Origin: a virus | DNA: 64,000 nt | Direction: 5' to 3' (one strand) | Virus record (IMG/VR): IMGVR_UViG_3300001685_000001 | Notes under the pieces: model-generated | Told to the model about the DNA's origin: nothing | Seen by the model: only the letters and a program-made list of their open reading frames with translations | Database searches by the model: none | Made by a program: the position numbers and the translations under genes | Shown: positions 1 through 38,129 of the stretch, one piece after another | Layout of the letters: each line of letters starts with the position of its first letter | Position numbering within the stretch: position 1 is the first letter of the stretch

Positions 1-1216
1 TAATTGGCACTTGCGAAATATCAATTGATTTCTTGAATACTTTACCACTACCTAATGTAGTTGGTGATTGTTCGATAAATGCTATAGTTCCAATTTCAGA
101 TGTAACATCTAATTCAAGTGGTTTATCCATGCCATGATTGATAAAGCTTTGTTCTGATTGGGATGATATTGTAGTTAATTTTGAAGATATACTTTCATAC
201 ATTTCTATTTCTGCAATTCTTAAATAAGTTCCACCTTTTACATCAGACACATCTAATTTGTAGCTTGTAAAAGAATTATTGTATTTATAATCAACAATAA
301 ATTCATTGGGACTACCATACACCCATCCAGTAGTTACATTACTTCTAACATCTAGGTCAGTCCAATTTATACCATCGTTTGAACCACGCAAAATCCAATC
401 TGTTGGAGACCAAGTAGCAGGGTTTTGAACTGGGAATATTGAATACTTTTTAATTTTCTTCCCTACTGGAAAAGTATAAGAAATGAATCCTGTTTTTAAA
501 TATTTACCTTCTATCCATACATCAGTTTTATTTCCATTAAAAGCTTTCCATGCTTCATTTCCACTCAACTCATTACTGGCACTAGCTATACCAGAAGGTG
601 AATTATTGCTTGTCATAACAGGTATTAAATTATCTGTATACCCACCTTTTTTAATACTTAACGCTTCTCCATTTGAAGATGAAATCAAGATTTTATTGAA
701 TCCTTCATATAATCTAAACCCTTGAGGAATATTATATTTAAATGGGGTTGCACCAAAATTAGCGGTTGCTTTACCAATAGCACCTCCACTAGTTATTGAA
801 GGAAAAACTTTACCCATAGTTTTAATATCAGAAAAGGCAATACCTTGACTAATCCCATTTTTATAGAATTCTAATTTGCCATTATCTAAATCTAAAGCTA
901 CACCAATAACATCTCCAACTGTATATGTAGCACCATATGTTGAAGTAGGATAATATCTGTTGCCATTTTGAGAATAATAATATCTTGAATTTAAGGTATC
1001 AAAAGTTCTCGAATCAAGTCCTGCATCTTTATTTATTATTCCTATTAAAAAATACCCACCAGAGACAATATTTATCTCCCAATACCATTTACCACTTTCT
1101 CTGCCAATTGTAGTCCTTGCTGTAGTTGTATTTGATGATATTTCGGTTGTCAGATTCCCATTTGACAACACTACGTTTACCCCTTTATTGATAGCATCCC
1201 ATGTAACCAATGTCAT
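1..1216 (-). CDS. SPRY/ConA + discoidin (F5/8C-like) tail fibre/receptor-binding paralogue; 3' end runs off the window
   Basis: Not in the ORF track. Translated by hand from ATG at 1216 (RBS AGGAGAG): MTLVTWDAINKG...GKWYWEI...GVALDLDNGKLEFYKNG...NLIPVMTSN...QSEQSFINHGM...TLGSGKVFKKSID. Open to position 2; paralogous to 1256-2530. Confidence 0.8.
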   Translation of the reverse strand, partial: MTLVTWDAINKGVNVVLSNGNLTTEISSNTTTARTTIGRESGKWYWEINIVSGGYFLIGIINKDAGLDSRTFDTLNSRYYYSQNGNRYYPTSTYGATYTVGDVIGVALDLDNGKLEFYKNGISQGIAFSDIKTMGKVFPSITSGGAIGKATANFGATPFKYNIPQGFRLYEGFNKILISSSNGEALSIKKGGYTDNLIPVMTSNNSPSGIASASNELSGNEAWKAFNGNKTDVWIEGKYLKTGFISYTFPVGKKIKKYSIFPVQNPATWSPTDWILRGSNDGINWTDLDVRSNVTTGWVYGSPNEFIVDYKYNNSFTSYKLDVSDVKGGTYLRIAEIEMYESISSKLTTISSQSEQSFINHGMDKPLELDVTSEIGTIAFIEQSPTTLGSGKVFKKSIDISQVPI

Positions 1217-2613: not shown

Positions 2614-3971
2614 ACTTCTAGTTTTCTTAAATCAAATATCTTCTTCAAATCTACTGATGATTTGTATACTTTACCTGCACCTAATACTTCACTAGTCATA
2701 CCTTTTGGACTTTCTAATACCTTTTGAACTTTACGGTCAAAGATAGATAAGTCATCCATACCTTCTGTTTGGAATTGAGGTAAAGTTGGAAGAGTAGGTG
2801 ATACTGTTTTGAATGATGGAGGTATTGCAGGAGTTGGAGTTTCGAACATTGATAGTTCTCCTATCGCTAAATATGAACCACCGTTATGCAATGACACGTT
2901 TATTCTATAGTATAAATATGTTTTTACATTATTAATATCAAATGTCTTAGTTTGAGAAAGTATCCATCCTGTAATATTCGATTGTGTATCTAAAACATCA
3001 AATAAAATTCCGTCATTTGAACCTTCGAATGTCCAAGACTTAGGATACATGGTTTCTGTTCCTGCTATTGTAGAGCTAGAAACTGAATATTTTACAATCT
3101 TTTTAGGTAATGTAAATTGATACATTAGCCAACCAACAATACCTACTGGTTGCCAAATCGTATCATAACTACCATCAAACGCTTTATACATGCCATATAG
3201 CTCACTACGCTCCGTTGAAGCTGTTACAGTTCCACTAGGGGTAGTTTTACTTGTCATCACTGGTATTGCACTATTGGTGATTGCAGGACTTCCTTGACTC
3301 AACTTCTTATACCCATCACTCAATAAAATGAACGATTTATTTAGTAGTGTGAATAGAGATTCTATTTCTAAAACTGGTCTGAAAGCTCTAGTTGCGTCTG
3401 ACGTTACCACATTACTAGACGAGGTGCTTGTTGAACCTCTAATAATTCGTTTTGTAGAATCTGTTGAAAGTGTCGTACTTGTCCATGAATATATTCCAAA
3501 GTTCCATACATTATTATCTCCTGCTGTAATCGTTCCACCAAGAGTAGAGCCAACAATATATTTATCCCATTCATTATCTTTGTCTGTTGAAACTGTTCCA
3601 CCTGTTAATAGGCGAGTAGCAAATGTATGTTTCAATCCTGTACCATCACTAATTTCGGGTAACATATTTGGTAGTCCACTACCACTTGCGATTCCACGAC
3701 TATTCAGAACATCCAAACTTAAACTGTGTTGGATATTTCTGTCAGCTAAAAGTATCTTCTTACCATTCCAATCTTCAACCATAATGAATCTGAAATATCC
3801 ATTAGGAGTGGCACTTGATGCTACTGGAATCACAGGAATTGCTTCTGCATCAGTCTTAGTTGCTATATCTGAAAATACACCAACTGTGTTAGCTGTTGCA
3901 ACTGTATATTTACACCAAAAGTAATCTCCAACTTTTAGTTTAGATAGATTATTATTTAAAGTTAAAGCCAT
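2607..3971 (-). CDS. Tail fibre paralogue: CLec-like N-domain + discoidin + shared C-terminal motif
   Basis: N-half (RLLTGG...NEWDKY...WT...FRPVLE) is homologous to 4040-4675; has a discoidin domain; C-terminal LGAGKVYK motif is shared with neighbours. Confidence 0.75.
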   Translation of the reverse strand: MALTLNNNLSKLKVGDYFWCKYTVATANTVGVFSDIATKTDAEAIPVIPVASSATPNGYFRFIMVEDWNGKKILLADRNIQHSLSLDVLNSRGIASGSGLPNMLPEISDGTGLKHTFATRLLTGGTVSTDKDNEWDKYIVGSTLGGTITAGDNNVWNFGIYSWTSTTLSTDSTKRIIRGSTSTSSSNVVTSDATRAFRPVLEIESLFTLLNKSFILLSDGYKKLSQGSPAITNSAIPVMTSKTTPSGTVTASTERSELYGMYKAFDGSYDTIWQPVGIVGWLMYQFTLPKKIVKYSVSSSTIAGTETMYPKSWTFEGSNDGILFDVLDTQSNITGWILSQTKTFDINNVKTYLYYRINVSLHNGGSYLAIGELSMFETPTPAIPPSFKTVSPTLPTLPQFQTEGMDDLSIFDRKVQKVLESPKGMTSEVLGAGKVYKSSVDLKKIFDLRKLEVK

Positions 3972-4039
3972 TAAAACATCTCCTTTCTTTTGAATCTATA
4001 GTCAATAAATTTGACATTTTATCTTTATTTAATTATTAT

Positions 4040-4675
4040 TTATGCTTCTTGATATTCGAAGACTGGACGAAATCCATAAGCTCCACTAGTAGTACTTGAT
4101 AATGCAAAAGCTATTTTACCAGTAGTACTAGTTCTTACCCTTTGCGTACTTGGTGCTAAAGCTAAATTAGGGGTATCTTGTGTCCAAGTGCCACTGTTAG
4201 TATAATGAAACACATCGTCTACTGTCTTCCCACTCTGAATCTTATCAGCAGGGAATTTAACAATATATTTATCCCATTCATTATTAGTAGGAAATGCACC
4301 AAATCCTAAATCTGTAGTTGAACTATTTCCATTAGCATCTACATAGGCTACTCCACCTGTAAGGGAACGTAAGCTTCCAACAATACTATCTATTGTTTTT
4401 GGTGTTCCTTGAATTAATTTATTGGTATTCAAGGTGTCCCAAGTTACTGTATGAACCGCTACCCTGTCAGACATCAACAATCCTTTATCTACTTTGATAA
4501 AATAGAAATAATTGTTAGCTGAACCATTTGCAACTCCTGTCAATGGAAATTCAGTAAGACCATTAACTCCTATAACAAACGTCAATCCTGCTTGATATGA
4601 ACAAGCTATATAATCTCCAATTTGCATATCTGCAATCTTCGTTCTTAAAACTCCTGTTGTTGCAGGAACTCCCAT
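4040..4675 (-). CDS. Virion accessory protein, C-type-lectin-like fold candidate
   Basis: SLTGG...NEWDKYI...WTQDT...GFRPVFE; homologous to the N-domain of 2607-3971. Confidence 0.65.
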   Translation of the reverse strand: MGVPATTGVLRTKIADMQIGDYIACSYQAGLTFVIGVNGLTEFPLTGVANGSANNYFYFIKVDKGLLMSDRVAVHTVTWDTLNTNKLIQGTPKTIDSIVGSLRSLTGGVAYVDANGNSSTTDLGFGAFPTNNEWDKYIVKFPADKIQSGKTVDDVFHYTNSGTWTQDTPNLALAPSTQRVRTSTTGKIAFALSSTTSGAYGFRPVFEYQEA

Positions 4676-4779
4676 ATTTATTCCTCCTTATGATAAATAT
4701 TTGATGATTAACAACCAAATTAACTTATATTTATCAAATTATTATCATTAAAACCAAATAAAATCTATATATTATTGGT

Positions 4780-4929
4780 TTATTTAACTTCGTATTTTGC
4801 TTTCATCACATTTGTTTTGGTATTTGATTCTTCATCGTTATTGCGCTTATTAAATAAGTGTTTCACATATCCAGAGATAGCACGAAACCTAAATAAGCTT
4901 CCACCATTCCTACTTTTGAATAAGCTCAT
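4780..4929 (-). CDS. Hypothetical 49-aa protein
   Basis: Hand-translated MSLFKSRNGGSLFRFRAISGY...KYEVK; starts 1 nt after the upstream stop. Confidence 0.5.
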   Translation of the reverse strand: MSLFKSRNGGSLFRFRAISGYVKHLFNKRNNDEESNTKTNVMKAKYEVK

Positions 4930-5211: not shown

Positions 5212-5799
5212 CTAATTAATATTTATTTTGTCTAGTCTTAGCCATTCGGCTCTTGTAATAGGCTTTCTGAATAAGTATCCTTCACTAGTCCAAGCCATGT
5301 CTCTATTCATCATCATTTTATAATCACGCTTTAGCTTTAAAGTTCCACCTGAAGTTTCAATGTTATATGAATTGTTAAATAACGCTGAATCGGAAGGATT
5401 ATTGAAATCTGAAAGTGTGAAATTGGTTAATTCATATCCTGCATAGAATATAATTTTAATTTGGATGTATCTTTTTGTTTCTGATTGGATATTTCCTGTT
5501 TCTGTAGTAGAAATATATTCGTCAAATCTAATCCCATCATCAGATGTTCGAGTAAAAACTCCTATTGTATCTGATTTAGTTTGAACCTTGGATAAAACAA
5601 CTCTGTCAAAGTCTTGGAACTTATCAACCAAGTCAATCACTTTCGATTCCCAATATCCTTCATCTGCGTAGATAGACTCTCCTAAATCTGTGATTGCTGT
5701 TTTAGTCAGTTTAATAGCACCATCAACATACTCGGAGTTAGAATATGTTCCTAACCCAATTCCCAGTGCAATACCTATTTCTTTTGTTTCTGTAGCCAT
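5212..5799 (-). CDS. Virion structural protein (tail/baseplate)
   Basis: Operon context; C-terminus resembles that of the fibre paralogues. Confidence 0.65.
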   Translation of the reverse strand: MATETKEIGIALGIGLGTYSNSEYVDGAIKLTKTAITDLGESIYADEGYWESKVIDLVDKFQDFDRVVLSKVQTKSDTIGVFTRTSDDGIRFDEYISTTETGNIQSETKRYIQIKIIFYAGYELTNFTLSDFNNPSDSALFNNSYNIETSGGTLKLKRDYKMMMNRDMAWTSEGYLFRKPITRAEWLRLDKININ

Positions 5800-36784: not shown

Positions 36785-37012
36785 TCAATCCTCAAACTCT
36801 TCATCTACAGGAACTTCTAACGGGAGTGGTTCTAATTCAGATGCTTCATTAATGGTAAAGTTAACTAGTTTATCTTCACCTTCAAATTGCTTAAAGGTAT
36901 CAGATAAAACGTATGTTCCAACCAATTCGCCTTTTTTATATTCTCTTATTAAGTTTTCTTCCCATGAGATTTGACAGTCTTTAAATGCGTAATTCAATGT
37001 TTGTTTTGCCAT
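36785..37012 (-). CDS. YonK-like small protein
   Basis: Size, synteny and resemblance to SPbeta YonK (recalled). Confidence 0.6.
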   Translation of the reverse strand: MAKQTLNYAFKDCQISWEENLIREYKKGELVGTYVLSDTFKQFEGEDKLVNFTINEASELEPLPLEVPVDEEFED

Positions 37013-37088
37013 TCTTTTATCTTCTCCTTTTATTCAACGTTAATGTTGCCATTAACTAATTTTAATAAAACCTTACTTTTATGTATAT

Positions 37089-37182
37089 GAGAGTCCTAAA
37101 AAGAACTCTCTAAGCACTAACAAGGGGAGGTGCTATGCTTATGACCTTTGAGAAGGAAGGTGGAGATAACTCCATAGTATTA
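37089..37182 (-). ncRNA. Candidate C-rich (anti-Shine-Dalgarno-like) small RNA in the tRNA trailer, ending in a hairpin
   Basis: CTCCACCTTCCTTCTC and loop CACCTCCCCTT, then GAGAGTTC-N6-GGACTCTC. Confidence 0.4.
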
Positions 37183-37258
37183 TGGTGACTCAGGAAAGAC
37201 TTGAACTTCCGACACCCTGAGCTTCAATCAGGTGCTCTACCAACTGAGCTACTAAGTC
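37183..37258 (-). tRNA. tRNA-Phe(GAA), unusual G37 C38
   Basis: 76-nt cloverleaf, CCTGA-TTGAAGC-TCAGG, encoded CCA. Confidence 0.92.
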
Positions 37259-37262
37259 ATTT

Positions 37263-37345
37263 TGGTCAGGAATGTTAATTTCGAGTTAACGACCCCCAGC
37301 TTCTGATTTGTTATGCTGGTGCTCTGCCATCTGAGCTAATTCCTG
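37263..37345 (-). tRNA. tRNA-Pro-bodied tRNA-like RNA with a 14-nt anticodon loop
   Basis: Acceptor CAGGAAT/ATTCCTG, A73 and CCA are identical to the tRNA-Pro; stem CCAGC/GCTGG encloses ATAACAAATCAGAA. Confidence 0.8.
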
Positions 37346-37349
37346 TTGT

Positions 37350-37434
37350 TGGCACGAGTTGAAGGAGTTTAACCTCTTGAAAACGGGTTTGGAATCCGTC
37401 AGCATGTACACACGCTTTTAATTCTCTAACTCGC
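37350..37434 (-). tRNA. Degenerate tRNA-Trp(CCA)-like gene
   Basis: ACGGA-TTCCAAA-CCCGT, G73, CCA; ~9-nt insertion before the D arm; T loop TTAAACT. Confidence 0.6.
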
Positions 37435-37439
37435 ATAAT

Positions 37440-37513
37440 TGATACCCCATAGGAGTTTCGAACTCCTGATTTCGCATAGAAAGTGCGATGTCTTACCACT
37501 TGACCAATGGGGC
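37440..37513 (-). tRNA. tRNA-Glu(TTC), unusual T37 A38; 3' end reads ATCA (no encoded CCA)
   Basis: TCGCA-CTTTCTA-TGCGA; T arm AGGAG-TTCGAAA-CTCCT. Confidence 0.88.
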
Positions 37514-37516
37514 ATA

Positions 37517-37593
37517 TGGTCAGGAATGTTGAACTCGAATCAACGACCCCTAGCATCCAAAGCTAGTGCTCTACCAAACTGAGCTAATTCCTG
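37517..37593 (-). tRNA. tRNA-Pro(TGG), unusual A37
   Basis: C1-G72, A73, CTAGC-TTTGGAT-GCTAG, CCA. Confidence 0.92.
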
Positions 37594-37601
37594 TAATAAA
37601 T

Positions 37602-38129
37602 TTATGAAGAATATCTCCATTTAAATCCACCTGCTGTCTTTCGGGTGTCGCCTCTCCAGTCAATACCTCTTACAGCATATAAGATAGTGCTAGGAGATTT
37701 TATATTATTCTTTTTTGATGCTTCAGCCATAGATGGATAGGAAGACATATAGTTGCCATCTAAATCCAATTTATCTACGCTTCTTTGGTTCGATTTTTTA
37801 CCAAGTAAGCCATTCTCTTTTTGATGTTTTAAGTTTTCTGCCTGTGTAATAGCCTCTAAATTACTTATCTTGTTATTTAGTTTATTTCCATCAATATGAT
37901 TTATTTGCATTCCAATACACTTGCTTCCAAAATAAATCACACCTAAAACTTGATGCACTTGTAAGAGTTTCTTTTTAACTTTCACTCGTAAGTATCCAGT
38001 TGAACTACAAATAGTACCATTTGTTCCTTTTGGAGTAGTGATAATACCTTCAATAATGTCATAATTGATATTTTCAAGGTTACTACTTATAAAATTGTAC
38101 ATATCAATAGACATTCCAGCATTACTCAT
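37602..38129 (-). CDS. Free-standing HNH homing endonuclease (HNH_3 + NUMOD1-like)
   Basis: VHQVLG...INHIDGNKLNNKISNLE; C-terminal DLDGN...YPSMAEASK. Confidence 0.85.
   Translation of the reverse strand: MSNAGMSIDMYNFISSNLENINYDIIEGIITTPKGTNGTICSSTGYLRVKVKKKLLQVHQVLGVIYFGSKCIGMQINHIDGNKLNNKISNLEAITQAENLKHQKENGLLGKKSNQRSVDKLDLDGNYMSSYPSMAEASKKNNIKSPSTILYAVRGIDWRGDTRKTAGGFKWRYSS

Follow-up and report, generated by a model that had tools for sequence, protein, structure and literature searches.

What is a complete tRNA-Pro body with no readable anticodon doing in a phage tRNA cluster? The question arises in the window, by which we mean the whole 64,000-nucleotide stretch of viral DNA analyzed, whose sequence is identical to that of a 166-kb marine-metagenome contig in ENA (L014). 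The features that bear on the answer are as follows.

37263 to 37345, minus strand: the anticodon-less tRNA-Pro mimic, 83 nt, a complete cloverleaf with an A73-CCA end; orthologs in contigs L053, L054, L062, and L064.
37301 to 37314, minus strand: a 14-nt unpaired loop in place of the 7-nt anticodon loop.
37263 to 37267, minus strand: G72, A73, and the encoded CCA of the mimic, invariant in all alleles.
37279 to 37285, minus strand: the T loop of the mimic, CTCGAAA, identical across five alleles.
37517 to 37593, minus strand: the parent tRNA-Pro(UGG), with a 9-nt D loop and A37.
37441 to 37514, minus strand: tRNA-Glu(UUC), replaced by Leu(UAG) in L053.
37350 to 37434, minus strand: an aberrant tRNA-Trp(CCA)-like gene with G73-CCA whose D arm is rebuilt and whose T arm is weak; it lies upstream of the mimic, at a distance of 4 nt.
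37183 to 37258, minus strand: tRNA-Phe(GAA), the gene immediately downstream of the mimic, where each of the four relatives has Gln(UUG) instead.
37602 to 38129, minus strand: an HNH endonuclease gene inserted just upstream of tRNA-Pro, absent from L053, L062, and L064.

Read along the minus strand, the cluster runs from a 207-aa gene through a structured ncRNA, the HNH gene, Pro(UGG), Glu(UUC), the Trp(CCA)-like gene, and the mimic to Phe(GAA). Genes for YonK, a YonJ-like metallophosphoesterase, terminase, HU, and RecD2 lie near it. Among cultured phages, YonJ has its best matches, at 35 to 38%, in SPbeta-like phages of Alicyclobacillus and Bacillus, and it shares 75% identity with a Lederbergia protein; from these matches we infer a Bacillales host. 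The tRNA cluster with the mimic is that of an SPbeta-like phage.

As a fold, the mimic has everything except the loop. Its 7-bp acceptor stem (CAGGAAT/ATTCCTG) is closed by C1:G72, with C1 at 37345, and C1 together with G72, A73, and CCA makes up the acceptor determinants of bacterial tRNA-Pro (PMC11229370, PMC3973320). U8 and A9 are present, followed by the D stem (GCTC/GAGC) with an 8-nt D loop carrying G18G19, a 5-bp stem in the anticodon position (CCAGC/GCTGG), a variable region GGGTC, and the T stem (GTTAA/TTAAC). In the T loop C54 replaces U54 while U55, C56, G57, and A58 are retained, and the wider set of core bases (U8, A14, G15-C48, G18G19, U55, C56, A58) is present. The fold has a z score of -2.45, with the cloverleaf at most 1 kcal/mol from the minimum free energy, and the loop is predicted to stay open on its 5-bp stem. 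The GG anticodon bases (N34-G35-G36) were sought in the mimic loops of 14 or 10 nt and are absent there. ARAGORN does not call the mimic, Rfam (RF00005 included, in both gathering and E-value modes) does not detect it, and a promoter scan gave matches at chance level only. The longest match of the loop to the rest of the window is 10 nt, equal to that of shuffled loops, and a guide-like role was rejected since the window holds no target beyond chance.

The parent tRNA-Pro lies 254 nt upstream, the two genes form the top direct repeat in a 9-kb region, and outside the loop they are identical at 60 of 70 columns, with 9 substitutions and 1 gap. Parsing and alignment bear out the preliminary description, which had the acceptor stem, D stem, variable region, A73, and CCA the same in both copies; it leaves out two details, C54 in the T loop and the D loop of the mimic, which is one base shorter (8 versus 9 nt). 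It had also called the stem differences compensatory, and indeed all 4 stem substitutions fall in two pairs, 28:42 and 52:62. Its further step, that these differences imply selection on the fold, does not follow from the paralogs alone, because CCAGC/GCTGG is a common stem in ordinary phage tRNAs (25 of 36 pattern matches with a 7-nt loop), so that the differences may predate the loss of the anticodon; the support for selection comes from orthologs, where all five alleles are fully paired. The sequence suggests that the phage tRNA-Pro was duplicated locally to give the mimic, whose anticodon stem may have been grafted on. An att-site tRNA fragment was considered as a source and rejected: both the 5′ and the 3′ halves are duplicated, the copy is full length, and only tRNA genes lie between the copies. 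With a canonical tRNA-Pro(UGG) (RF00005) the mimic has in common C1:G72, A73, CCA, the D stem, the variable region, and the elbow bases, but it lacks the 7-nt loop and a G35/G36 in register, and it has C54 and an 8-nt D loop. Judged on the sequence features tested, it is not a decoding tRNA-Pro. The parent has its own peculiarities: A37-U38 rather than G37, as also in Bacillus phage vB_BcoS-136 (L103, 4487 to 4564), and A53-U61 rather than G53-C61.

Relatives were reached via YonJ and YonK, and four contigs (L053, L054, L062, L064) cover the mimic; L063, L065, L104, and L105 end before the site and were left out of the allele set. The mimic is present in all four, giving five alleles with the window, and in each of these 21 of 21 stem pairs are intact, one compensatory T-stem change included. 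Total length ranges from 79 to 83 nt. The loop is 14 nt in the window and L053, which differ there by two substitutions, and 10 nt in L054, L062, and L064. Thus a search of relatives found neither a normal 7-nt loop nor random decay elsewhere, and the reading of the element as a tRNA mimic stands, with a perfectly paired body and a loop that is never 7 nt in 5 of 5 alleles. The mimic is probably a tRNA look-alike that would read no codons.

The same alleles weigh on three more specific ideas about the loop. The preliminary description had it exactly doubled, with an insert equal to the 7-nt repeat period of the neighboring ncRNA, and proposed an RNA with a 7-nt excisable piece. Doubling and period are both arithmetically true of the window genome; the first does not generalize to relatives with a 10-nt loop, and the 10-nt allele rejects any link to the ncRNA. 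Splicing, in which removal of 7 nt, possibly measured by the heptad-repeat RNA, would leave a 7-nt loop, can formally be read into the 14-nt loop, which parses as N32-U33-AAC-A37 plus 7 nt. It predicts a constant excess of 7 nt, however, whereas the excess in the 10-nt allele is 3 and U33 is missing there. Bacteria, moreover, are not known to have a tRNA splicing endonuclease; nothing else in the window matches the loop beyond chance; and the intron-type genes found, among the matches listed, have 17- to 22-nt loops starting Y-U-N-N-N-R, giant-virus contigs among them. We regard splicing as extremely improbable, and an intron at position 37/38 was rejected as such: Y32-U33-NNN-R37 is not restored in every allele, and the insert is 7 nt in one case and 3 in the other.

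The second idea is residual decoding, in which the RNA would be charged with proline through G72/A73 and a 3′ stack N-N-G36-A-A would read Leu or Gln codons or cause frameshifts. All mimic loops do end N-N-G-A-A (the last five bases are CAG-AA, UUG-AA, or UAG-AA), with a G in the position equivalent to 36 and then AA. This ending may be a trace of anticodon-loop grammar, one that cannot be told apart from ancestry or from a copy of the neighboring Gln gene; the L053 loop end has 10 nt in common with tRNA-Gln. Anticodon loops of 10 to 14 nt are far outside the range that ribosomes are known to use efficiently, which argues against decoding, as do a would-be anticodon that varies by allele, a 10-nt allele without U33, and the loss of U54. 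On the other side, anticodon changes cost the ProRS of Bacillus thuringiensis only about 6- to 54-fold each (PMC11229370). Decoding of this kind seems very unlikely.

The third is a decoy for anticodon nucleases or tRNA sensors, in which a diversifying loop would display anticodon-like words such as the CAG-AA, UUG-AA, and UAG-AA endings. Loop change is fast even between near-identical genomes (L053 versus L054/L062, where silent divergence is 0 to 8% by gene), and both 14-nt loops split into two A-U-N-N-N-A-A heptamers. Phage tRNAs do counter anticodon nucleases (PMC10264068, PMC11555353), but the rescue described there is by resistant or overexpressed tRNAs, and neither paper uses the term "decoy." The 10-nt allele has no U33-type word. 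The loop that a nuclease targets should be conserved in a decoy, and here the anticodon loop is the sole non-conserved part of the mimic; this reading, also put forward in the preliminary description, is therefore quite unlikely.

If the loop is so variable, is the rest under selection? In an alignment of 8 genes, 168 of 168 stem cells are paired. Unrecombined orthologs show 4 body changes, all of which leave the pairs intact: an A53-U61 versus G53-C61 double change, G10-C25 versus G10-U25, and a C/U difference in the D loop at position 20. By our own parsimony count the loop takes at least 5 of about 9 allele changes, a concentration with P of about 0.009. Between the window and L053, 10 to 31% of four-fold degenerate sites differ (about 14 to 16% in the long genes nearest the cluster). 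Over the 69 sites of the mimic body the two have only 2 differences (P = 0.002 against a 14% four-fold-site rate), which lie on opposite sides of one pair, a placement for which the chance is about 0.009. The loop differs at 2 of 14 sites, the neutral expectation. From these data it is likely that the fold is actively maintained, on an evidence base of five alleles, all from close relatives. Besides the possible age of the paralog differences, two features of the data temper this. Measured against the local rate of a 170-nt non-coding flank, the body is not significantly slower, and because that downstream stretch is also conserved, local recombination could have made the region younger than the genome average. 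Furthermore, only one true compensatory event (53:61) is found among orthologs, and its state, A-U or G-C, is the same in parent and mimic within each genome, which hints at conversion or template switching. The flank itself (37012 to 37180, minus strand) runs from the cluster to yonK, holds several hairpins, and has 7 mismatches to L053; it is possibly a terminator plus promoter, or another small RNA.

These are the data on which a young pseudogene or recombination scar must be judged: a once-functional duplicate tRNA hit in the loop, its decay still to come, the two Pro bodies acting as direct repeats where recombination and HNH homing have reshuffled the cluster. Conservation of the non-coding flank is what such a scar would show, and so is the 10-nt match between the L053 loop end and tRNA-Gln. 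The distribution of the mimic is narrow as well, covering close relatives only. YonJ relatives at 74 to 84% identity have PhoH at the site and no tRNA cluster, and a GTDB scan with YonJ gave two loci, both distant and uninformative. Exact mimic patterns have no match in IMG/VR and, in JGI metagenomes, match one unrelated tRNA-Thr and nothing else; BLAST of phage records gave generic tRNA matches only, among the matches listed; and a covariance model (R1), built with the parent genes included so that its hits are not independent, found no further ortholog among the loci searched. The cluster also shows its capacity to rearrange. In L064 (546 to 625) parent and mimic have recombined, with a crossover in an 8-nt tract common to both copies, to leave the parent's D loop joined to the mimic's arm; the Pro anticodon arm and all genes in between are deleted, so that the contig keeps the mimic only, with no true Pro anticodon and no Trp-like gene. 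Coverage of this contig is 1.96, and the 8-nt tract was judged too short for the usual assembly collapse. The HNH gene, likewise consistent with a scar, is beside the cluster in the window genome only. Viewed by itself, that gene is an insertion, specific to this strain, that separates the ncRNA from tRNA-Pro, and the tRNA-Pro T arm beside it differs from that in relatives without it. Against a pseudogene, the loops have come to differ by several substitutions and by 4 nt in length, yet there are zero broken pairs, in genomes about 14% apart at silent sites, and the same design arose many times in phages, among the matches listed. As a test of decay, then, the body has no broken pairs and is slower than silent sites, but the alleles are few and the flanks conserved. 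We consider a young pseudogene possible, if somewhat improbable.

Maintenance of the mimic finds further support in its neighborhood, since it is retained while the genes around it are swapped or deleted, Glu for Leu(UAG) in L053 and Phe for Gln(UUG) in all four relatives, and since L064 has the arm of the mimic despite the loss of the true Pro anticodon. The L062 cluster holds Leu, Glu, and an odd CAU-type gene, this last an uncalled CAU-anticodon tRNA-like gene at about 4495 to 4575 with a bulged acceptor stem. The Trp-like gene, called by neither ARAGORN nor Rfam, accompanies the mimic in L053, L062, and L054 (where the contig holds its 3′ part only), and on this rests the suggestion that the mimic is processing punctuation, an RNase P substrate that would set free the 3′ end of its neighbor 4 nt upstream, the Trp-like RNA, and space the next tRNA, for which acceptor and elbow are needed and the anticodon is dispensable. 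Trp-like gene, 4-nt spacer, and mimic do travel as a unit in the window, L053, L054, and L062, and the Trp-like RNA has poor T and D arms. Nevertheless, L064 has the mimic without the Trp-like gene, and any ordinary tRNA would serve, one of which directly follows. We find punctuation unlikely. The Trp-like gene is of interest in its own right: it has an extra hairpin where the D arm should be, and its L053 counterpart (5343 to 5427) differs at 5 positions in all, all within the anticodon arm, one change being compensatory. It is the mirror image of the mimic, with anticodon kept and elbow lost, and recalls the tRNA-Other of B. cereus; by analogy, its RNA could act on a Trp T box.

Given a body that is conserved and a loop that is not, a role via the acceptor/CCA end fits the conservation pattern. 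Our preferred reading is that the phage tRNA-Pro was duplicated locally, lost its readable anticodon loop, and may have been kept as a non-decoding mimic. The mimic would be co-transcribed with the cluster, its 5′ end cut by host RNase P and its 3′ end trimmed to CCA. In the ProRS of B. thuringiensis G72 and A73 are the strongest determinants and G36 and G35 add to recognition (PMC11229370); because acceptor end and elbow are conserved while G35 and G36 are no longer presented in place by the loop, the RNA should mature like a tRNA, charge poorly with proline, stay off the ribosome, and not decode. It would then accumulate mostly uncharged, tRNA-shaped, and unusable by anticodon nucleases. In the weakest step of the chain, it would serve as a decoy for, or ligand of, proteins recognizing the tRNA-Pro acceptor stem, CCA end, or elbow, with CCA-modifying defense toxins as candidate targets and the true tRNA-Pro thereby spared. 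Readers of this kind exist: ProXp-ala reads C1:G72 and A73 without the anticodon (PMC3973320), and toxSAS toxins choose tRNAs by acceptor stem and CCA, modify the CCA, and are implicated in anti-phage immunity (10.1101/2024.07.05.602228). Because defense toxins with such selectivity are known, an uncharged Pro body is a plausible sponge. For the whole chain, in which selection on the acceptor end (C1:G72, A73, CCA) and elbow maintains a tRNA-Pro mimic that does not decode and most likely serves as a decoy, we can claim only tentative confidence, close to an even call. The more ambitious version, in which a nuclease-proof uncharged tRNA-Pro body, recently born beside its parent, soaks up host acceptor/CCA-reading effectors and belongs to a class of anticodon-less phage tRNAs that is widespread and shares this role, must be considered doubtful.

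How unusual is such an element? One of the closest precedents is in T5, where RNA1 and RNA2 (AY543070, also RNA3) are annotated "tRNA-like stable RNA with unknown functions." Like the mimic, they sit inside a phage tRNA cluster with HNH genes and have predicted acceptor, D, and T arms and no usable anticodon loop. They are 144 and 125 nt long, with a long paired arm in the anticodon position and an extra arm, whereas the mimic, at 79 to 83 nt, keeps a 5-bp stem with an open loop, a Pro-type acceptor, and a parent gene nearby. With no sequence match between the mimic and T5 among the BLAST matches listed, the comparison indicates that the mimic is an analogue of RNA1/RNA2 in design and not a homologue. 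In T4, rnaC and rnaD (the species 1 and 2 RNAs) are stable RNAs without an annotated function, found where a phage tRNA cluster with a homing endonuclease ends, and rnaC has a T-arm-like 3′ hairpin in its predicted fold, but both are much longer than the mimic and have no tRNA cloverleaf core in predicted folds. Among Bacilli, the B. cereus pseudo-tRNA tRNA-Other is likewise tRNA-shaped; it is poorly aminoacylated, is found off polysomes, and has a role outside translation (PMC3399842). Its anticodon, however, is that of Trp, and its target is a T box; it thus resembles the neighboring Trp-like gene and not the anticodon-less mimic. Nuclease-evading phage tRNAs (PMC10264068; T5 tRNA-Lys versus PARIS, PMC11464382) have anticodon arms that differ from those of host tRNAs, as in the mimic, but through point changes that leave them usable in translation, instead of a 10- to 14-nt loop.

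Scanning IMG/VR with a pattern for tRNA bodies whose anticodon arm is long yielded at least 114 distinct sequences, at least 78 of them with well-paired acceptor, anticodon, and T stems. Of these, at least 33 resemble 37/38-intron genes and at least 45 have 10- to 22-nt loops lacking the intron signature, although among the latter some pair into longer stems or may be unusual tRNAs of other kinds. Among the matches listed, none of the at least 45 has a same-acceptor parent within the retrieved DNA, and one (L142) has the C1:G72/A73 end. Hence the expanded-loop design appears to recur in unrelated viral contigs and in T5, with the mimic as a minimal Pro-derived case, unusual in that the parent gene is still 254 nt away. 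Several other oddities came up. L039 (160 to 239), L047 (8441 to 8520), and L041 carry an independent tRNA body that shares the anticodon stem of the mimic and has a 12-nt loop, in which 5 additional bases precede an Ala-type loop; it occurs as two variants with compensatory T-stem changes. L021 has adjacent phage tRNAs with 8-nt anticodon loops (1201 to 1278 and 1111 to 1186, minus strand), one of them Pro-like. A family of four tRNA bodies (IMG/VR contigs L112, L118, L143, L155), whose 21-nt loop is conserved, lies outside tRNA clusters within the retrieved DNA. Finally, in the tRNA cluster of vB_BcoS-136 (L103), repeated ACAGCAAT-containing stems (about 2660 to 2780, 3668 to 3792, 3866 to 3992, 4258 to 4375, 4738 to 4825, and 5245 to 5300) surround tRNA-like sequences that are incomplete or rearranged, among them an unannotated Ile-like body at 3706 to 3780.

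Phage tRNA clusters have long been known for tRNA-like RNAs without known function, such as T4 rnaC/rnaD and T5 RNA1/RNA2, and gene finders miss the mimic; within the incomplete coverage of our literature search, we found no description of such an element. If it is a young pseudogene, it would merely show where such look-alikes come from. Should it prove to be a decoy that draws acceptor-end toxins, phage counter-defense would gain an RNA-sponge mode. In either case, the mimic and its working parent, with the same acceptor stem, alleles with 10- and 14-nt loops, and a recombinant, form a matched pair with which to probe what an anticodon-free tRNA body can do.
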